Source of the DNA: an uncultured Chloroflexia bacterium
GTDB lineage: Bacteria > Chloroflexota > Anaerolineae > Anaerolineales > UBA4823
Direction: 5' to 3'
Length of the DNA: 64,000 bases
NCBI GenBank assembly: GCA_963777965.1
Contig: CAVZSS010000018.1
Coordinates: 64,928-128,927 of the forward strand
Shown here: piece by piece, positions 1 through 9,503 of the stretch
Numbering within the stretch: the first letter of the stretch is position 1
Layout: the number at the start of each line of letters is the position of its first letter
Notes under the pieces: model-generated
Told to the model about the DNA's origin: nothing
What the model saw: the letters and a program-made list of their open reading frames with translations, nothing else
The model's database searches: none
Position numbers and translations under genes: made by a program

Positions 1-486
1 GCAGGTATCGAGGGCGGTCGAGATTCCCTGCTCCTTCAAGCTGCGCAAGAGCGCTTCGGTAAAGTCCGCTTGATAGGTTGGTTCACCACCGGATAGCGTT
101 ACTCCGCCGCCGGATTTCTCGTAGTAAGCCCGGTCTTTGAGTAGTTCAGCCAGTAATTCTTCTACGGACAAGGTCCTTCCCAGCATCTCGCGCGCACCAG
201 ATGGACAGGTTTCAACACATTTACCGCACGCCTCGCATCGTTGGCGGTCAATCACCAGTCCCGCGCCAGTCATCGCAAGGCATCTATTTGGGCAGGCATC
301 CAAGCATAATTTACAGCCGATGCAGCGCGTTGCGAACCACTGGGTTTGCAATTGCATGGAGATACTCTCCGGGTTGTGGCACCAGGCACACTGCAGAGGG
401 CAGCCCTTGAAGAAAACCGTGCTGCGGATGCCTGGCCCGTCCTCAGTGGAGAGGCGCTGGAGGTGCAGGATTCGGCCGGTGGTCAT
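1..486 (-). CDS. glycyl-radical enzyme activating enzyme (radical SAM, PflA-like); C-terminal part cut by window edge
   Basis: Absent from the ORF track because it runs off the window. My minus-strand translation from ATG 486..484 gives MTTGRILHLQRLSTEDGPGIRSTVFFKGCPLQCAWCHNPES... This holds the CxxxCxxC radical-SAM motif, two ferredoxin-like clusters (CIGCKLCLDACP, CEACGKCVETCP) and GGGVTLSGGEP. The ATG overlaps the TGA of the upstream GRE (ATGA). Confidence 0.85.
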   Translation of the reverse strand, partial: MTTGRILHLQRLSTEDGPGIRSTVFFKGCPLQCAWCHNPESISMQLQTQWFATRCIGCKLCLDACPNRCLAMTGAGLVIDRQRCEACGKCVETCPSGAREMLGRTLSVEELLAELLKDRAYYEKSGGGVTLSGGEPTYQADFTEALLRSLKEQGISTALDTC

Positions 487-3003
487 TTCATCTGGTGGCT
501 TTCACGGGAGATGATCTCGTTCTGGAGTTCCCTTCCAATGGAGGTGAAATAAGCGTTGTAGCCGGTGACGCGCACCAGCAGGTGCCGATAGTTCTCTGGG
601 TGAGACTGGGCGTCTCGCAACAGGTCAGCATTGACCAAATTTACCTGCAATGCGGAACCGCCATTTTCTATGTAACCCTTCAGGAAGGCCTTGAACTTCT
701 CACGGTGTTCAGGATCGCGCAGCATGGACGGGTTGAAGGTCATCGTGTGGCTGCCACCGTTGGGCAGAAGGTTCAGGTATTCCTCCCAATCTCCACGGCC
801 ATCTGCGGCTTTTCCACCCAGGGCTTTACCCACCGAGTTGACATTTGCTGTAGGTCCGTTGATATCTGCGCCATTGGAAGGGCACAATGCATTCGATAGG
901 AATTTTCCACGCGGGCGTCCATCTGGGCTGGCAGGCAGGATGAATGAATCAGCTACCCAATAGTTCCACGACAACATGCCGGGTCGGAATTGACGGCTGG
1001 TGGATTTTGTCTTGTATTTCCAGGTTTCTCCAGTCCATAATTCCATAACCTGGCGAGCCAGCGCATCGGCTGCCTCATCATCTCTGCCATACTTGGGAGC
1101 CTTGTGAAGGGCGCGTGCCTGTAGAACTTCGTGCCCACTCCAGTTATCCTTGAGTGCCTGGATGAGCTCTGCCATTGTGCATGCTTTTTGATCGAAGACG
1201 AGATACTTCACAGCCAGTAAAGAATCAACCGTGGTGGCGTATGTCACCGCCTCGATCGTTACGTAGCCTAATTCCGCGCCACCTTCGGTGATGTCCATCC
1301 CTTTCTGAGCGCAGCCTTTAACCAGGCAGGAGACATACGGTGTAGGTGCAAATTGGGCACGAATGGACTCGCTTTGCTCGTATAGTTCCACGATTCGGCG
1401 GATGATGTGTTGGGTCTGAGCAGCATACGCCTCCCAGAATTGCTCCCACGTATGGAATTGGGTAGCATCACCTGTGTCCGCTCCCCAGCGGGAGCGCGGG
1501 TCAGTCTTGCCGGTCATAGGGTCGGTGAACGGGATCAGGTCATAGCCTCCGGTCAGTGCCAATTCCACAGCCTTCAACAAATTCAAGTTGGCATCCACGG
1601 TGCCGGAGCGGTCGTTTCCAACCATCGTGTTTTCGAGGCAGCCGACTGGGGCATACTCAAAGACATTTTTCTCATGGATGAGTTGCGTCACCCCCGATTT
1701 CTTTGCTTGCAGCATCATGCCGGCCATGGAGCGTTCATCGAAATTGAGCAGGAAGGGCGATCCCTGGCTGGATGCGATCATTTCCACCACGCGGTCAAGC
1801 AATCTGTCTGGCGAGCCGCGGTGCAGGCGCACATTGGGTTTGGGCTCCAGGACGGGTGACATCTCGTCAATCACATCCAGCAGGATATACGTCAGATCGT
1901 TCGACATATCCTTCCCACCCGCTCCCATGCCTGAGATGGTGAAAAGTTGTCCATAACCTGCTGTAATTCCCTGGTTGCCGCCTGTGCGGATCATGCCATC
2001 GTAGGCGGTGTTGCAATGCAGCCAGAAGCATTTCAGGATCTCCTTGCCGAGTTCCGGGTCCATGCCTTCGCGGATGGACTGTTCCCATAAGGGAAATAAG
2101 TACTGATCGAACCGACCGAAGGAATCACCCGGGCCTGGGTAATTTTCATCCGACATGACCAGCATGTGAGTTAGCCAAAGGGACTGCAGCGCTTCCCAGA
2201 AATTTTGTGCAGGTTCCCAGGGGACGCGCGATCAGGTTATTGGCCATTTGGAGCAATTCCTGGCGACGTTGTGGGTCAGCTTCTATCTTTGCCAGTTGCT
2301 GGCATTCCTTGGAATATTCCGCTGCCAGGTCGCGTGGCATGCTTGCAGCAGTCATCATCGCGCGCAGTTGCGCACCTTTTTTGCCATTTTTATCCCCTTC
2401 GGCTAACGCTGCGTAGGTTGATTCAAGTTCGGCATGCACAGCTTTCCACCCATAGCGGATGATACGACCGTAATCGGGGATCAGGTGCCCGGACGTAGCG
2501 CCAACATTACCGTAGCCATGGTTGTGGAACCAGAGCATCGCTGCGCGGCTGCCCTTGAGGCCGTAGACCAGGCGATCGCGGTCTTTTGTCTCCTTTTCCG
2601 TCAGGCAGGTGGATGTCTGTATGTTGAAGCGCCCACCAGCAAGCAGGTCCCCGGGTAGGATTTCCTTTGGTAGATAATGTACCATCACCTCGCGGTTGAA
2701 CCAGGCGCGCCGCTCCGGCAGTGACCACTTCCAGAAATCAGGATGTAGGTTGACAGGGTGCGCCACTTGTTTAAAGGATGAGCGAAAAGTCTGCAGGAAA
2801 GAGTATGTCTCCGGGACGATATAGAAGGTTAATTCGTTATACTGGAAATCCCAGGGCGTTCCGGTGCTCCAGGAGGTGTACTCGTTGTTCCAGGCGCGGT
2901 TAACCCCCTGGAAATAATAATCACGTAGCCATTGGATGCGTGGTGACAAATTGGTAGGTGTTTTGATGGAAAAGTGGGGCTGAGTATCGGTTATTGTGGT
3001 CAT
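483..3003 (-). CDS. glycyl radical enzyme (PFL/GRE superfamily, single-Cys Cys-x-Glu loop, substrate unknown); frame broken once
   Basis: ORFs 2146..3003 (285 aa) and 483..2165 (560 aa) are the N- and C-terminal parts of one ~840-aa GRE. It has the glycyl-radical motif LLVRVTGYNAYF near the C-terminus and the thiyl loop APVGCLENTM. The conserved FWEALQSLWLTHM can be joined to the N-terminal ORF only by changing frame at the G4 run 2220..2223. An overlapping activase gene follows. Confidence 0.85.
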
Positions 3004-3388
3004 CGGCGTTCTCCTCTAAGATTTACTACCATGAACGTGCATCTCTTCTAGGAAGGTGTGTTAGTTTTATACGCATCGGCTGGTTGGGTCGTGCGGCAGG
3101 AGAAAAAAGTTGATTCAGGGTAAACCTTCCGGCATACGGGGATTATATCGCTAAGGCGTTAGATATGGTAATTCCTAATTTAGGAGTATATTTCCCTGAA
3201 AATTTTATAAAGTCCCCAAAAGGATATATCGAACATTTTTATCAGAAGATAAAATTGGTCCCACCGGGTAAATGATTGTTTTTCCAGTTCTATCAATCCG
3301 GGTTATACTTATTTTATTGTAACTACTCACCGGCCATCTATTATTACCATCACCTGCGAGTATTTGAGGCGGCAATATCCAGAAAACA

Positions 3389-3428
3389 GGGATCCGCAGG
3401 TGGTTTTCCCTGCGGATCCCTATTTTCT
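3389..3428 (+). terminator. perfect 12-bp hairpin with flanking A- and T-tracts (terminator/attenuator-like) inside a divergent intergenic region
   Basis: GGGATCCGCAGG (3389..3400), 8-nt loop, CCTGCGGATCCC (3409..3420), then TATTTTCT. AGAAAACA lies upstream. It sits ~110 nt before the aminotransferase start. Confidence 0.35.
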
Positions 3429-3539
3429 GACCTTTTCCCCCCATCCCAGACAATTTTGGGAAGGCGGAAAGGGGGGACTAAGGGGGGATGGGTGAGTAAT
3501 TACATTTTATTGGATCCAATATTAAATCGGAGGAAGGAC

Positions 3540-4901
3540 ATGACCCCAGACATCAATCCACTTGAACAACTTTACCGTTCGCGCACATCTGCATCCAAGC
3601 AATTATCTGATTTGGCAGGCAAATATCTGCCAGGTGGTGTAGCCGCCAATGGCAAATACCTCCCGCCCTACCCAATTTACATGGTCGGCGGCCAGGGTGC
3701 AGAGATGGTCGATATCGACAACAATAAATACATAGATTTATTGATGGGTGCGGGTGTTCATATCCTGGGACATTCACCTGAGTGTGTCCTGCGTGCTGTG
3801 CACAAGCAGCTCGACATTGGAGTGCACTATTATCTCCCGGCCGAAGCAGAGGTCAAACTGGCACAGAAGGTTTGTAAGCTGATGCCCTCGGTCGAGATGG
3901 TTCGCTTCTTGAACAGCGGTTCTGAATCAACCTTGATGGCTTTACGTGCTGCACGTGCCTACCGTAAGCGCCCCAAGATTGTAAAATTCGAAGGTAACTT
4001 TCACGGCCAGCATGATACAGTCCTGGTCAGTACCCTGGCAGTGGAAGGTGATCCGGGAACCCCTCAACCCCATCTGGATAGCGCTGGCATCCCTGAGAAT
4101 GTAAAAGACAACCTTATCATCCTGCCCTACAATGATCCGGACACCGCTGTCAAGCAGATCAAGCTGCACGCCAACGAGTTGGGTGGGGTAATCGTCGAAC
4201 CGGTCTCGGCTTTCGGTTTGGGGGTGGTGCCAGCTGATATCGAATTCCTCAAAGCCTTGCGCCAGGTGACTGCTGAAACAGGCGTCCCGCTGATTTTCGA
4301 TGAGGTAGTGACCAATTTCCGCATCGCACTCGGTGGTGCCCTCGAATACTTTGGCGTCCTGCCCGACCTGGTTTGCCTGGGAAAAATCCTGGGTGGTGGC
4401 TTCGCGATTGGGGGATTCGGCGGTAAGCGTGAGATTATGGACAAGGTAGTCACCCCAAAGGTCGGCCTGTGGGACCTGTCCGAACAAATCTTCCAGTCCG
4501 GCTGTTTCTCTGGCAATCCGGTCTCGATGATGGCTGGCCTTGCGGTCCTGGAGGAGCTCGAGAAAGGCACAACTTACCCGTATATCAATGCATTGACAGA
4601 AACCCTCTGCCGCGGAATGGATAGTCTTGGCGAACGTCTGGGTGTTCCTCTTATGGCTGCCAGGGTGGCATCTATCTTCCAATTCCACTTCACTTCCATA
4701 GGGATCAAGAATAAGCGCGATGCCATGAAAGCCAACAAGCAAGCTGCAGGCTTGTTCCACCTTGGCCTGCGCGCCAATGGTATTATGGCCAGTGCCCACC
4801 CGCTCTTTATGTCCACTGCGCACAATCAGAGCCATGTTGACAGGGTCTTGGAGGTCTCCGAAACAGTTCTCAAGCAGATGCTGATCAACAAGATGTTTTA
4901 A
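3540..4901 (+). CDS. class-III (PLP-dependent) aminotransferase, glutamate-1-semialdehyde aminomutase-like paralog
   Basis: In-frame ATG 3540 is preceded by GGAGGAAGG. The product MTPDINPLEQLYRS...GKYLPGGVA...DLLMGAGVHILGH...LIFDEVVTNFR...GKILGGGFAIGGFGG matches the GSA-AM/class-III pattern, including the Lys-containing GK-I-x-GGG segment. It lacks the canonical HemL GGVNSPVRAF, so I do not call it hemL. Confidence 0.85.
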   Translation: MTPDINPLEQLYRSRTSASKQLSDLAGKYLPGGVAANGKYLPPYPIYMVGGQGAEMVDIDNNKYIDLLMGAGVHILGHSPECVLRAVHKQLDIGVHYYLPAEAEVKLAQKVCKLMPSVEMVRFLNSGSESTLMALRAARAYRKRPKIVKFEGNFHGQHDTVLVSTLAVEGDPGTPQPHLDSAGIPENVKDNLIILPYNDPDTAVKQIKLHANELGGVIVEPVSAFGLGVVPADIEFLKALRQVTAETGVPLIFDEVVTNFRIALGGALEYFGVLPDLVCLGKILGGGFAIGGFGGKREIMDKVVTPKVGLWDLSEQIFQSGCFSGNPVSMMAGLAVLEELEKGTTYPYINALTETLCRGMDSLGERLGVPLMAARVASIFQFHFTSIGIKNKRDAMKANKQAAGLFHLGLRANGIMASAHPLFMSTAHNQSHVDRVLEVSETVLKQMLINKMF

Positions 4902-5153: not shown

Positions 5154-6622
5154 TTAACTTTTGTTTCGGCCTCGAGAGGACCGCACTTTATAAATACGAT
5201 AAGTCCCCGCATGATTGGCATTCATGGGAAACGGCTTACGAATAGCGTAAAACTGCCACCGGCCAATAATTTCGGCTGCCATGACTACCAGGAAAATTGG
5301 AATAGCCAGCCATGCTTGATTGGCCTGAGGTACGATAGCTAAGAACAGAGTCCCGATAATTCCCAGGCCGAGAAAAGCAATTCGCAGCTTACGTGCCGTG
5401 TCGTTATTGGTGGATTGTGTTGTCAGCATCATTAGTATTCCTGCTATCATTCCGATCCCGGCAAGGATTACCCATTCAGGGTGCGGTGCAGCGAAGTTTA
5501 CGCCAAGTGCTCCAAGAGTCACTGCGCTCAAGAAAAATGCTGCAGAGGTGCGCCAGTTGTTCCAGGCTGGGACCGCTCTAAGGTGGTAGACTTGGGTCAT
5601 GCAGTAAATCAGCCCGAGGCCTAATATCGCCAAAGGCCAGGGATTGGGAGAAATTTTCCAGAAAAATTGAAGTCCAACTGCTACCGCCCAGGTTGCTCCG
5701 AACAAGCCTGCCACCAGGATTTCCCGGCTCAGCCAGGATTTTTTGAGATGTATGACCGACCGCCAGGCATTGCCTTTCCTGCCCAGGTGCAGGAACGAAA
5801 TTATTCCCCCCGCTGCCCAGTAGAATACCGATGGCCAGACAGCACAGGCAGGGGTACTGGAGAAAGCACCAGGCTGAAAACTGCCATACCTGCTGCCGCC
5901 TGGGCGAGCAGGGTAAAGCCAACTAATGGCAGTTCGCGCACAGTGTCGATTCGATGGGTATTCTCAAACGAATGGGGTGGCCGGAGTTCTTCTTGGTTGG
6001 AAACCGTTTTGGTAAGCGGGTTATTCATCCCTGCATGTGGTTTGATGGCCAGATGCGGCTCCGTGCGTGAATAATCTGGCAATGGGAAAGGATGTTCGGT
6101 CGCTGGCAGCTGCCATAAATTCTGACCTTTATTTACTGTACTCAATTCTTCGATTGTTTCATAATCTAATACCCGGAGCGGGCAGGCTGCCACGCAACTC
6201 GGTGGCATACCAGCATCAAGTCGATCGTAACAAAAGTCGCATTTGGTCATGATGCCTTGCATGGTATCGTACTGCGGTGCTCCATACGGACATGCCCAGG
6301 CGCAGTAATCGCAACCCATGCACTTGGACGAGTCGATCAATACGATCCCATCCGGGCGGACGGTGTAGGCATCCACTGGGCATACGCCCGCGCATTTTGG
6401 ATGGGTGCAGTGGTTGCATGCAAGGGATAGGTTATAGGCGAAAACGCTGTTCTCCCACGCACTGCTGGCCATATGCCAATCCCCACCAGAGATTTCAATC
6501 ACCCGCCGCCACATTATTCCAATCGGCAGGTTGTTTTTATCCTTACAGGCTTCCTGGCAGGTCTTGCAACCCGAACAGGCACTTGCGTCAAAGGTGAATG
6601 TATAGCTCATCTCTCGAATCAT
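5154..6622 (-). CDS. fused 4x[4Fe-4S] ferredoxin subunit (DmsB-like) and DmsC-like membrane anchor; frame broken once
   Basis: ORF 5801..6622 carries the Cys clusters CSGCKTCQEAC, CNHCTHPKCAGVC, CMGCDYCAWAC and CDFCYDR...CVAAC. It then runs without a stop into a TM helix (LVGFTLLAQAAAGMAVFSLVL). The DmsC signature ISFLHLGRKGNAWRSVIHLKKSWLSREIL appears only in the frame of ORF 5154..5714 extended upstream. The frame change is most likely at the G4 run 5851..5854. Confidence 0.75.
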
Positions 6623-6635
6623 TCACTCCGCAGGT

Positions 6636-9017
6636 TCAAGGATTTCCTGAATCTCTCTGCTGTTTTTTTAGGTTGGATTTTTCAACTTGAACCATGATCG
6701 TATGCTGCGTCGAGCCGAATGCCAGTGGAGTCCAACGGTGGGAAGTCAGCACATTGATACAACCGCCATGATCAACACCCTCCGGGTCGGGGTCCCACCA
6801 GGCACCCTGCGGGATGTCGACCACGCCTGGCAAGATACGCTGGGTGAGGCGGGCATGTATGACCAGCTCCCCTCGTTCATTCCAGACCCGTACCAAATCG
6901 CCATCCTCGATACCCCTTGCCTTTGCATCCAGTGGATTGATGAAGATCCGCTGTGGGAAAGCCTCCTGAAGCCAGTCATTGTTAGCATGTGTGGAGTGCA
7001 CCCGGGCGAGGCTGTGATGCCCAATGGCTTGCAGTGGATATTGTTTTTCCCCATGTTTATTTGAGGCATTTGATCCATTGTCTCCCTCAGGGAATGGATT
7101 TTCCCATTCCGGGATGTATTTAGGTACCGCAGGGATATCATAGGGTCTGTCCATGTCATACAGGGTCTTGGAAAAGATCTCGATTTTACCGCTGGGTGTC
7201 TTCAAAGGGTATTTTTGTGGATCACGGCGGAAATCAGCCAGGCCAACGGCAGGTTGGGTGACTGGTTTTGAGTAGGCACCCAGGTTTTGCTCAATGAATG
7301 TTTCCAGGCTGGGCAGGTCAGGGAAGCGTGTTTCCCTGTAACGGTCAAGGCACCATTCCACCCAGCCTTTTTCGTCACGGCCTTCTGTATAAGCATCCCC
7401 AAAGCCTAAACGATCCGCCAGGTCTGCGCAGATTCGGTAATCACTCTTACACTCACCGAGTGGCTCGACCAGTTTGGGTTGTAAAATAACTTCATCTCCA
7501 TACTTCCAGCCGTCCTCCACTCCCCAGGTTTCGAACTGGGTGCAGGCTGGTAGCACAACATCCGCAAATTTTGCGGTGGAAGTCAGGAAGTTATCCTGAA
7601 CTACAATAAATTCAACTTTTGACTCGTCCCTCAGTATTGCTGCCGAGCGGTTGATATCAGCATGCTGGTTGATGAGGCAGTTGGTGGCAACGCCATAGAT
7701 CAGCTTAATGTCGGTCTTCAAGTTTGGGGCGCCGATCACACCCTCAGCCGAAGTCATCTCATGTCCACGCAGGCACGCTTCACTCCACAGAAAAACTGGG
7801 ATACTCGCTTTTACTGGGTTCTCTCCCGTCGGGAAAAGCGTCCAAAAAGGACCGCCGTCGGGTGCTTGCATACCCAGTCCACTTGCCCACCCACCCGGTA
7901 TCCCCACGTTACCAGTGATGGCAGCCAGCACACAACCGGCACGCACCACCTGTTCTCCATAAGCGCGGCGCTGCATTCCGTATCCCTGGTAGAGCACCCC
8001 GGGTTTGATCGTGGCATACTCATGTGCGATACGGGAGATGGTCGCCGCAGGCACTGCGGTGATGGCTTCAGCCCACTGCGGGGTTTTGGGGACTCCGTCA
8101 CGCACACCGAGCAGATAATCGGAATATGATTCTGAGCTCTCTGCACCTGGAGGCATGTGGGAGCCATCCCAACCTATGCAGTGGGTGCGAACAAAATCGG
8201 CATCGTATAGATCCTCGGTTAGCATCACATAGGCCATGGCGCTCATCATGGCCGTGTCGGTGCCCGGGCGGATGGGGATCCACTCATCGGCCAGGGATGC
8301 TGCTGAAAGTGAATGGCGCGGGTCGATGCACACAACTTTTGCGCCGTTCTCATGTGCCAGCTTGACGAAGTAATCGCTGTTGGTGCCATCGCGCATTTCG
8401 GCGGGATTCCAGCCCCACATAATGATGTAGCGGCTGTTCAACCAATCCTGGCGTTGGTTGCCAGTGACCAGGGTTCCATAAACAGTCGGAGTGGCGATAT
8501 TGATTGCGCCCCACGAATAGGAATTGTAAATACCGAGGCAACCGCCGAACAGGTTCATCAGGCGGCGAGCGGTGTGCGAGCCGTTGAGCTGGTTGTAGCT
8601 GCCCGTTCCGTAGGGTACAAACAAGGCTTCATTACCATATTTTTCTCTAACACGGTGAAGCTGCCCAACCACAGTCTCCAAAGCTTCCTCCCACGTACAG
8701 CGCACGAATTGGCCTTCACCGCGTTCACCCACCCGTTTAAGCGGATACTGCAGGCGGTCGGGATGGTACTGGCGGCGTAGGTAGGCGCGTCCCCGGGCAC
8801 AAGCCCGCAGCTGTGGAGCAGCCAGGCTGTCCGGGCGGTCGTCCGTATCCAGTTGGGTGATCCTGCCGTTTTCGATGGAGGCGATGAGCAGGCAGCGTCC
8901 TCCGCAGTTATGTGCCGGACATCCAACCCGGATTCGGGAGACAATCTGCCCGTTGTATCCTGGCCCCGTTTGCCGTAGAGAGGATGGATTGGATTTTGCT
9001 TTGCTGAAAAATTTCAT
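6636..9017 (-). CDS. molybdopterin (bis-MGD) oxidoreductase catalytic subunit, DMSO-reductase family, no obvious Tat signal
   Basis: 793-aa ORF with an N-terminal FeS motif GCPAHNCGGRC...C, followed by molybdopterin oxidoreductase and C-terminal dinucleotide-binding regions (...VVQDNFLTSTAKFADVVLPACTQFE...). The N-terminus MKFFSKAKSNPSSLRQTG has no RR-x-F-L-K motif. Confidence 0.85.
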   Translation of the reverse strand: MKFFSKAKSNPSSLRQTGPGYNGQIVSRIRVGCPAHNCGGRCLLIASIENGRITQLDTDDRPDSLAAPQLRACARGRAYLRRQYHPDRLQYPLKRVGERGEGQFVRCTWEEALETVVGQLHRVREKYGNEALFVPYGTGSYNQLNGSHTARRLMNLFGGCLGIYNSYSWGAINIATPTVYGTLVTGNQRQDWLNSRYIIMWGWNPAEMRDGTNSDYFVKLAHENGAKVVCIDPRHSLSAASLADEWIPIRPGTDTAMMSAMAYVMLTEDLYDADFVRTHCIGWDGSHMPPGAESSESYSDYLLGVRDGVPKTPQWAEAITAVPAATISRIAHEYATIKPGVLYQGYGMQRRAYGEQVVRAGCVLAAITGNVGIPGGWASGLGMQAPDGGPFWTLFPTGENPVKASIPVFLWSEACLRGHEMTSAEGVIGAPNLKTDIKLIYGVATNCLINQHADINRSAAILRDESKVEFIVVQDNFLTSTAKFADVVLPACTQFETWGVEDGWKYGDEVILQPKLVEPLGECKSDYRICADLADRLGFGDAYTEGRDEKGWVEWCLDRYRETRFPDLPSLETFIEQNLGAYSKPVTQPAVGLADFRRDPQKYPLKTPSGKIEIFSKTLYDMDRPYDIPAVPKYIPEWENPFPEGDNGSNASNKHGEKQYPLQAIGHHSLARVHSTHANNDWLQEAFPQRIFINPLDAKARGIEDGDLVRVWNERGELVIHARLTQRILPGVVDIPQGAWWDPDPEGVDHGGCINVLTSHRWTPLAFGSTQHTIMVQVEKSNLKKQQRDSGNP

Positions 9018-9140: not shown

Positions 9141-9429
9141 GTGCCCCCAACGAGGTTCGAACTCGGTTGGCCTCAAGTCCCTGGAACGGGGATGAGAGAG
9201 CCGGGTTTCTGTGCCCCCAACGAGGTTCGAACTCGTGTTTCGGCCTCAAGTCCCTGGAACGGGGATGAGAGAGCCGGGTTTCTGTGCCCCCAACGAGGTT
9301 CGAACTCGTGTTTCGGCCTCAAGTCCCTGGAACGGGGATGAGAGAGCCGGGTTTCTGTGCCCCCAACGAGGTTCGAACTCGTGTTTCGGCCTCAAGTCCC
9401 TGGAACGGGGATGAGAGAGCCGGGTTTCT
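9141..9429 (-). repeat. four head-to-tail tRNA-Glu-derived units (one 70-bp variant 9141..9210; three identical 73-bp units 9211..9283, 9284..9356, 9357..9429)
   Basis: Direct reading of the sequence. The plus-strand unit is GTGCCCCCAACGAGGTTCGAACTCGTGTTTCGGCCTCAAGTCCCTGGAACGGGGATGAGAGAGCCGGGTTTCT. Its first 36 nt are identical to the 3' end of the adjacent tRNA gene. Confidence 0.95.
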
Positions 9430-9430
9430 G

Positions 9431-9503
9431 TGCCCCCAACGAGGTTCGAACTCGTGTTTCGGCCTTGAGAGGGCCGTGTCCTGGGCCGCTAGACAATGGG
9501 GGC
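9431..9503 (-). tRNA. tRNA-Glu (anticodon CUC)
   Basis: Manual cloverleaf: acceptor GCCCCCA/TGGGGGC, D stem GTCT/GGAC, anticodon arm CGGCC-CTCTCAA-GGCCG, variable AAAC, T arm ACGAG-TTCGAAC-CTCGT, discriminator A. 73 nt, with no encoded CCA. Confidence 0.9.

Follow-up and report, generated by a model that had tools for sequence, protein, structure and literature searches.

The question raised by this locus is which reaction its unusual glycyl-radical enzyme (GRE) carries out, and whether the aminotransferase encoded beside it takes part. The locus lies at the left end of a 64,000-nucleotide stretch from an uncultured Chloroflexia bacterium of the order Anaerolineales (assembly GCA_963777965.1, contig CAVZSS010000018.1, positions 64,928 to 128,927 of the forward strand), and this whole stretch is referred to as the window. 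A first-pass annotation of the DNA had pointed out the motifs RVTGY and GCLE, an unusual N-terminal sequence of the GRE, an activase gene and a divergently transcribed aminotransferase gene, all of which are present in the window, and had suggested, as an inference, that the aminotransferase might feed the GRE. The reading that we favour, and regard as probable when taken as a whole, is that the window holds an operon of an uncharacterised GRE clade, that the enzyme is a C-O-cleaving eliminase or isomerase, that the aminotransferase is unrelated to it, and that a frameshift in the GRE gene is an error or recent. The features concerned are the following.

483–3003, minus strand: GRE gene; 839 amino acids (aa) after a one-base repair, with the key residues His173, Ser294, Cys455-Leu-Glu457 and RVT-Gly814-Y.
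2228–2232, minus strand: site of a single-base insertion that splits the GRE into open reading frames (ORFs) of 285 and 560 aa.
1–486, minus strand: gene for the GRE-activating radical S-adenosylmethionine (SAM) enzyme; the N-terminal 162 aa are visible, and the gene runs past the left edge of the window.
3540–4901, plus strand: HemL-like class-III, pyridoxal phosphate (PLP)-dependent aminotransferase of 453 aa, with the ribosome-binding site GGAGGAAGG.

The GRE is encoded by two minus-strand ORFs, 2146–3003 (285 aa) and 483–2165 (560 aa), which are parts of one interrupted gene. The product carries the motifs RVTGYNAYF, with the radical Gly814, and VGCLENT, with Cys455 and Glu457, and it matched the Pfam profiles PF02901 (PFL-like; PFL, pyruvate formate-lyase) and PF01228 (Gly_radical) with 397 and 75 bits, respectively. 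Gly454-Cys455 aligns to the Cys that is invariant in 103 of 103 GRE sequences from outside the clade described below, and Cys455-Leu-Glu457 is invariant within the close clade in the multiple alignment. The argument made at first pass that a single-Cys loop of the Cys-x-Glu (CXE) type separates the enzyme from PFL, which has a Cys-Cys pair, was judged correct. In the AlphaFold2 (AF2) model, the mean predicted local distance difference test score (pLDDT) was 91.9, and solely residues 1–8 fell below 50. The protein is thus a PFL-like fold with a radical Gly, a catalytic CXE loop and a cognate activase, for which radical formation and turnover are predicted. Residues 1 to ~170 matched no Pfam or NCBIfam profile, in line with the earlier remark that the N-terminus is unlike that of characterised GREs, yet this region retains landmarks that are nearly invariant across GREs in the multiple alignment (R22, A100 and G123), and it was modelled as helices, mostly with high confidence. 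Judged from alignment and model, the N-terminus is a diverged region common to the clade and not a foreign domain. A novel fused N-terminal domain was ruled out, as both the alignment and the AF2 model give the usual GRE N-terminal helices with insertions.

The family membership of the GRE was assessed with the equivalog cut-offs of NCBIfam, of which none was reached (scores of 78–393 bits):

TIGR01774 (PFL2-3 subfamily): 393 bits, cut-off 678.
NF048011 (HpsG): 362 bits, the second-best NCBIfam match, cut-off 1000.
NF043068 (HypD): 358 bits, cut-off 1100.
TIGR04394 (CutC): 301 bits, cut-off 1050.
TIGR01255 (PFL): 78 bits, cut-off 994.

The best PDB sequence matches were CutC, IseG, Archaeoglobus fulgidus PFL2, HypD, HpsG and glycerol dehydratase (GD), at ~260–287 bits, and they align solely from about residue 170. 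A Foldseek search placed the model at about equal distances from GD, 1,2-propanediol dehydratase (PD), CutC and HypD, with template modelling (TM) scores of 0.78–0.85 and identities of 22–26%. Among 5.8 billion proteins, more than 120 clusters of homologues of 838–841 aa (mostly 839 aa), 82–97% identical to the GRE, were found, all of them derived from metagenome bins of Chloroflexi/Anaerolineales. When 1.84 billion representatives at 50% identity were scanned, a sharp identity gap emerged: a handful of representatives (64%, 49%, 39–43% and 34–38% identical) have the N-terminal region of the clade, and GREs outside it are ~30–35% identical, with alignments that start at about residue 170. Sequence comparison accordingly sets the GRE in a clade of its own that belongs to no characterised family and occurs mainly in Anaerolineae, and also in Dehalococcoidia, Desulfobacterales, Syntrophaceae and Bacillota. 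A June 2026 review of all characterised GREs has no entry like this clade and mentions whole clades without validation (PMC13450708). The first-pass view that the enzyme is uncharacterised is therefore borne out by the NCBIfam cut-offs, by PDB matches of only ~280 bits and by this review.

A side branch of the clade (P0122, P0126, P0128, P0134 and P0140) is without the catalytic Cys and/or the glycyl-radical motif, and its members may be non-radical GRE-like proteins. Specifically, P0122 (L090:260-3669), which is 49% identical to the GRE, reads GFHE, with Phe where the catalytic Cys would stand, its glycyl motif is degraded, and no activase gene lies next to it; the locus continues with an enoyl-CoA hydratase gene, a SnoaL-like gene and an amino-acid-type ATP-binding cassette (ABC) transporter.

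The surroundings of the GRE were compared in 80 loci from species-representative GTDB genomes, at 63–93% GRE identity, and in nine loci from metagenomes. Neighbour families were counted by tblastn over the 80 species loci, and neighbouring ORFs were additionally clustered de novo. The loci belong mostly to Anaerolineae, with some from Dehalococcoidia, Desulfobacterales, Syntrophaceae and Bacillota, and three neighbours recurred:

activase directly downstream of the GRE: 73 of 80 loci.
283-aa protein directly after the activase: 72 of 80 loci.
FadR-type GntR regulator directly upstream of the GRE: 38 of 80 loci.

The loci without the 283-aa protein are mostly short or truncated contigs, and a few loci of 22 kb likewise had no match passing the filter. 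In de novo clustering of neighbouring ORFs, every other family was limited to at most 12 of the 80 loci; the other recurrent neighbours are housekeeping genes, such as those for MinCD and ribosomal protein L9. The activase start overlaps the GRE stop (ATGA), and its product, 95% identical to that of the closest relative (locus L005), shows CPLQCAWC (CX3CX2C), two ferredoxin-like Cys clusters, the Pfam domains Fer4 and Radical_SAM, and a TIGR02494 score of 208.5 bits against a cut-off of 174. By this comparison of loci, the window opens inside a conserved operon that runs from the GRE to the activase and on to a 283-aa tandem split-barrel protein, which lies off the left edge.

The 283-aa partner gave a sub-threshold match to the Pfam profile PNPOx_N (26.1 vs. 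28.1 bits), and its AF2 model, built from a shallower alignment (pLDDT 75), consists of two split beta-barrels in tandem. Foldseek searches with the single domains returned PNPOx-like proteins, the Desulfovibrio FMN-binding protein, F420-dependent reductases and HupZ; these matches, including 2HTD, 3IN6, 3F7E and HupZ, had E values of ~1e-5 and target TM scores of 0.6–0.7 per domain. Seventeen columns are invariant across 43 partner sequences, PMFRYNAYFG is almost invariant, and the first barrel keeps the stretch F-T-x-G-x-S-K...N-P, which we take to be the flavin-phosphate motif of PNPOx-like proteins. Furthermore, a homologous split-barrel partner gene shares 7 nt with the gene of P0122 (L090). 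Because the partner gene persists beside the activase-less P0122, it would work with the GRE body and not with the activase only. From its modelled fold, the partner probably binds flavin and acts directly with the GRE, and it could serve as a subunit, as a flavoenzyme that processes product or substrate, or as an electron donor. A literature search on GREs with a PNPOx-like partner and on GREs in Chloroflexi found no description of the module. A PNPOx-like protein, LssP, is mentioned in a limonenylsuccinate synthase operon (PMC12583861).

The regulators that precede the GRE resemble NanR, LldR, GlcC and PdhR. In six Dehalococcoidia loci (L057, L058, L061, L064, L069 and L088), the place of the FadR-type regulator directly upstream, on the same strand, is taken by a 430-aa major facilitator superfamily (MFS) transporter. 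Its best match was the D-galactonate transporter subfamily (145 bits, below the cut-off), and by this resemblance it is a candidate importer of the GRE substrate. A gene of the formate/nitrite transporter family, unusually long at 355 aa, is confined to the closest relatives (L005:9239-10306 and L010:14440-15504; also L011 and L025), where it lies at a distance of 2–7 kb from the GRE operon. It was dropped as a functional clue, being found in 3 of the 80 loci only.

In solved eliminases, the position of GD His164 is reported to read the leaving group; C-O-cleaving dehydratases have His there, CutC has Asp, and IslA, IseG and HpsG have Gln flanked by two Arg (PMC13450708). For the Glu of the CXE loop, two residues past the catalytic Cys, the function is taken from the same source (PMC13450708). 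In our GRE, His173 corresponds to GD His164 according to HMMER coordinates, in which residues 171–838 align to 162–787 of 1R8W, and not to a residue-level alignment. His occupies the His173 column in 85 of 103 other GREs, and His173 aligns to the Asp of Klebsiella pneumoniae CutC and, after a 20-residue chain offset, to Gln191 of IseG. The sulfonate triad of IseG (R187/Q191/R676) is replaced by A169/H173/G675, so that the IslA analogy drawn at first pass does not stand. Glu457 and Ser294 (SxGR motif) are conserved. When the substrate-binding residues of IslA/IseG, CutC and GD were aligned, the GRE was found to share the GD-type His, and neither the sulfonate triad nor the CutC Asp. Since His173 and Glu457 form a dehydratase/isomerase signature, an IslA- or CutC-type function is excluded. 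Other positions are the clade's own. Invariant clade-specific residues on the predicted pocket strands are Phe448 (Arg in other GREs), Asp464/Arg465, Asp470 and Asn472; Met676-Leu-Ser-Trp-Asn-Tyr-Trp682 and Cys707 (Ser in other GREs) are also specific to the clade, and seven residues are inserted directly before Gly172-His173. Given these residues on the pocket strands, the substrate is likely to be new.

From these residues, we infer that the GRE is a C-O-cleaving eliminase or isomerase. In the proposed mechanism, the activase would install the radical at Gly814, Cys455 would become a thiyl radical and take a hydrogen atom from the carbinol carbon, Glu457 would deprotonate the carbinol hydroxyl, and His173 would protonate the vicinal oxygen leaving group, so that a carbonyl product would arise by C-O-cleaving 1,2-elimination or by ring-opening isomerisation. 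By analogy, a small anionic metabolite with hydroxyl groups is the probable substrate; the hints for this are weak, and the guess is made because of the FadR-type regulators related to LldR, GlcC, NanR and PdhR together with the galactonate-transporter-like MFS genes.

We then have to account for the interrupted reading frame. The window and L005, whose GRE protein is 97% identical, share 95.7% DNA identity over 3173 bases with a single gap, namely an extra base of the window at ~2230 in the context GAT[C]GCGCG, and the same position was gapped against locus L094 as well. Removal of this base gives an 839-aa GRE reading ...ANNLMRVPWEPAQNFWEALQ..., which matches L005, and the repaired protein reads ...ANNLMRVPWEPAQNFW... 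at the insertion site, where it also matches L005. The repair into a single protein had thus been foreseen correctly by the first-pass annotation, which gave its length as 840 aa. The ratio of nonsynonymous to synonymous differences (pN/pS) of the GRE against L005 was 0.14 before the frameshift and 0.07 after it, indicating that purifying selection on the 583 codons after the frameshift has been strong. A nearby DmsB-DmsC gene carries a second such insertion, of one C within a C6 run at 5806–5811. As the two single-base insertions lie within 6 kb and both stand in low-complexity contexts, an assembly error is favoured, and from the sequence comparisons the GRE frameshift most likely reflects such an error or else a lesion that arose very recently. 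The rival explanation that survives best, which we hold to be unlikely though a serious contender, is that the frameshift has truly turned the GRE gene of this strain into a pseudogene and that the locus is decaying. The reading frame is indeed broken at ~2230, the insertion site there is not a homopolymer, and the strain is also without five neighbouring genes and has the second frameshift in DmsBC. However, decay fits poorly with a pN/pS of 0.07 after the frameshift and with the lack of any further lesion across 2.5 kb, an extra C in a C6 run is a typical assembly error, and the GRE family is intact in ~75 species.

The gene with the second insertion belongs to a separate minus-strand region (5154–9017), in which a DmsA-like molybdopterin oxidoreductase gene (6636–9017) is followed by a DmsB-DmsC fusion gene. 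The fusion is split into ORFs of 273 and 186 aa in the window, and it is intact (478–484 aa) in the P0004 contig and in L094.

Another rival explanation, which we think distinctly less likely than a pseudogene, concerns the chemistry: the GRE could perform another radical reaction that needs a flavin-type partner, either a net redox reaction through the split-barrel protein and Cys707 or a decarboxylation. The presence of the partner in 72 of 80 loci and its persistence beside GRE-like genes even where the activase is missing agree with this, as do Cys707, which is Ser elsewhere, and several other clade-specific residues of the pocket strands. On the other hand, the pair His173/Glu457 is the signature of dehydratases, and the placement of Cys707 is known from sequence alone. 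We know of no PFL-like GRE that works with an external reductant. A wider proposal, tentative and in our estimate improbable, is that the clade is a new functional GRE system in which the split-barrel flavoprotein is an obligate partner (a reductant, redox subunit or coupled enzyme) for an unprecedented GRE reaction on a central metabolite.

As for the aminotransferase, the product of 3540–4901 matched PF00202 (Aminotran_3) with 172 bits and missed both HemL cut-offs, with 376.8 against 398 bits for NF000818 and 369.5 against 527.3 bits for TIGR00713. It aligned over its full length to HemL of the PDB (277 bits), and its Schiff-base Lys motif LGKILGGG aligns to LGKVIGGG of HemL. One of the 80 species-level loci has an orthologue within 10 kb of the GRE. 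Among closer relatives, the gene was found 2.3 kb upstream of the GRE behind three genes in L005, 3.3 kb upstream behind four genes in the P0004 contig, ~9 kb upstream in L010, and, in opposite orientation, downstream of the 283-aa gene in L009. In L094, where the aminotransferase is 97% identical, five genes (280, 273, 209, 57 and 289 aa; 4.4 kb) separate it from the GRE, and the adjacency seen in the window arises because this strain lacks that 4.4-kb segment. Homologues at 65% identity (L095:6126-17325 and L096) lie in a conserved cluster without a GRE, in the order PucR-type regulator, aminotransferase, oligopeptide ABC transporter, AAT/peptidase C45-like protein, M20 peptidase and aldehyde:ferredoxin oxidoreductase, which suggests from gene context a catabolic omega-transaminase role. 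Judged across the compared loci, the aminotransferase is a bystander outside the conserved GRE module.

The opposite proposal, that the aminotransferase makes the GRE substrate from an amino-alcohol or amino-sulfonate or handles the product, as in the route from taurine through isethionate to IslA, appears very improbable. In the window, the aminotransferase and GRE genes do lie side by side and point away from each other, and in several close relatives the aminotransferase lies 2–9 kb from the GRE in differing arrangements; however, it is not within 10 kb in 79 of the 80 species-level loci, the adjacency was produced by the strain-specific loss of 4.4 kb, both the sulfonate triad of IslA/IseG and the Asp of CutC are missing from the GRE, and its 65%-identical homologues belong to a peptide-catabolic cluster without a GRE. 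Conservation of the pairing had been chosen beforehand as the check on this proposal, with its absence to count as refutation, and the pairing was not conserved in the 80 loci. The suggestion that the aminotransferase feeds the GRE was therefore given up.

Note that in L009 (16185-22520) and in the upstream region of L010, the aminotransferase is near a gene of ~1870–1876 aa that has no homologue in the window; the giant gene of L009 follows a 324-aa gene, and its product has an Aminotran_1_2 domain.

The spacer between the GRE and the aminotransferase, 3004–3539, is composite. It had been described as a structured region of 535 bp, and structure was found in the form of a hairpin, the length being 536 bp. 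Its parts are the following.

3004–3173, minus strand: native upstream region of the GRE (promoter and 5' leader), of which 3007–3173 is 96% identical to L005-L008.
3174–3319, no strand assigned: deletion junction and diverged remnant (remnant 3185–3319), located by blastn against L005 and L094 and from the gene tables of relatives.
3320–3503, no strand assigned: 184-bp segment without a counterpart in L005, with a near-perfect hairpin of a 21-bp stem at 3380–3429 and a second hairpin of G/C runs.
3504–3539: upstream region of the aminotransferase itself.

At the junction site, relatives carry 2–4.4 kb with three to five genes (a membrane protein, a TrmB-like protein and a 57-aa protein among the products), and L094 has in addition genes for a 280-aa protein and a tetratricopeptide repeat (TPR) protein. 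The DNA homology of the spacer shows a clean junction, and tblastn of the spacer for remnants of the GntR regulator, TrmB-like, 277-aa and 57-aa genes found none. The hairpin at 3380–3429 is flanked by T-runs on both strands, a 71-nt stretch around it folds at -36 to -45 kcal/mol, and no further copy of the 184-bp segment was found in the window or the fetched loci; the segment resembles a terminator that works in both directions, or else a small inserted element. A riboswitch or small RNA was rejected, as Rfam gave sub-threshold, microRNA-like matches to the hairpin, that is, matches to generic hairpins. Farther along the window, at 9141–9503, there is a tandem array of 4.5 copies of a 73-nt unit (98% matches). 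The unit contains a sequence like the T-arm of a tRNA, and the array abuts and overlaps a tRNA-Glu(CTC) gene (9431–9503, minus strand) in its 3' part; the array could consist of duplicated remnants of an integration site or be an assembly artefact.

The weakest explanation, that the GRE is what pipelines call its homologues, PFL or trans-4-hydroxy-L-proline dehydratase, can hardly be maintained, since apart from these names and the general PFL-like fold it would have to accommodate the single Cys of GCLE in place of the Cys-Cys pair, 78 vs. 994 bits for PFL (TIGR01255), 358 vs. 1100 bits for HypD and a structural-alignment identity to HypD of 23%.

Several points tell against the reading that we favour. 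The CXE motif is also found in GRE decarboxylases and isomerases, and sequence does not fix the reaction class. The active-site assignments come from sequence alignment, with the match of His173 to GD His164 read from HMMER coordinates. No transporter, dehydrogenase or pathway gene was consistently linked in the 80 loci, and the substrate guess is weak. The model of the partner is moderate (pLDDT 75), and flavin binding is predicted from fold and motif. Close relatives with at least 90% GRE identity keep the aminotransferase within 2–9 kb in four different arrangements, and this proximity could reflect a weak lineage-specific link instead of pure synteny. Finally, the frameshift of the GRE could be genuine.

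Anaerolineae are among the most abundant fermenters of anaerobic digesters, sediments and soils, and the GRE is very strongly conserved in them, at 82–97% identity over 839 aa in more than 120 sequence clusters. The pipeline names given to its homologues at the Joint Genome Institute (JGI) are "pyruvate-formate lyase", "formate C-acetyltransferase" and "trans-4-hydroxy-L-proline dehydratase". Because the GRE is without the Cys-Cys pair of PFL and reaches no equivalog cut-off, misannotation of this enzyme could partly underlie the claims, made from genomes, that Anaerolineae produce formate by way of PFL. PMC5481317 is one example of such a claim, and its gene would have to belong to the GRE family for the point to apply to it. 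If a partner-dependent type of GRE were true, the "pyruvate formate-lyase" of metabolic reconstructions of Anaerolineae would be something else. The clade is well delimited, has a fixed module of three or four genes and includes an accessory protein of a fold unreported for GREs, and for these reasons it is a practical target for function discovery.

Compared with known systems, the aminotransferase resembles HemL (glutamate-1-semialdehyde 2,1-aminomutase) in its class-III fold, its LGKxxGGG lysine motif and its full-length alignment, but it stays below both HemL cut-offs and has its 65%-identity homologues in catabolic clusters. As for the GRE, A. fulgidus PFL2 (2F3O; ~276–280 bits) is likewise an orphan, a PFL2-type GRE with GH...CXE whose function is debated; it differs by an identity of 26% in the structural alignment, lacks the N-terminus of the clade and has no known split-barrel partner. 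HypD, HpyG and HpzG and the isomerases HplG, YbiW and PflD are CXE-type enzymes that act on hydroxylated, often anionic substrates, and the mechanism proposed here is of their type, whereas their identity to the GRE is 22–25%, and the GRE is without their neighbours for pyrroline-5-carboxylate (P5C) reductase, aldolase and the phosphotransferase system (PTS). CutC, the top phmmer match in the PDB (287 bits), has the CXE loop, but its Asp that reads the trimethylammonium group is His in the GRE. IslA/IseG and HpsG, the latter of dihydroxypropanesulfonate (DHPS) metabolism, have the fold and the CXE loop in common with the GRE, whereas their sulfonate triad is replaced in it, and no sulfite reductase or taurine genes lie near it. 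The best structural matches are GD of Clostridium butyricum (1R8W/1R9D) and PD (5I2G), with TM scores of 0.78–0.85; these share with the GRE the CXE loop, the His of GD position 164, the SxGR Ser and the C-terminal glycyl loop, and like it they have an activase encoded next to them. The GRE differs from both in an identity of 24% in the structural alignment, in its diverged N-terminal 170 aa and seven-residue insertion before the His, and in a locus without a microcompartment or diol-pathway gene, and it has pocket strands of its own (F448, D464/R465, D470, N472, W679-N-Y-W682 and C707) and an obligate split-barrel partner that is unique to its clade.

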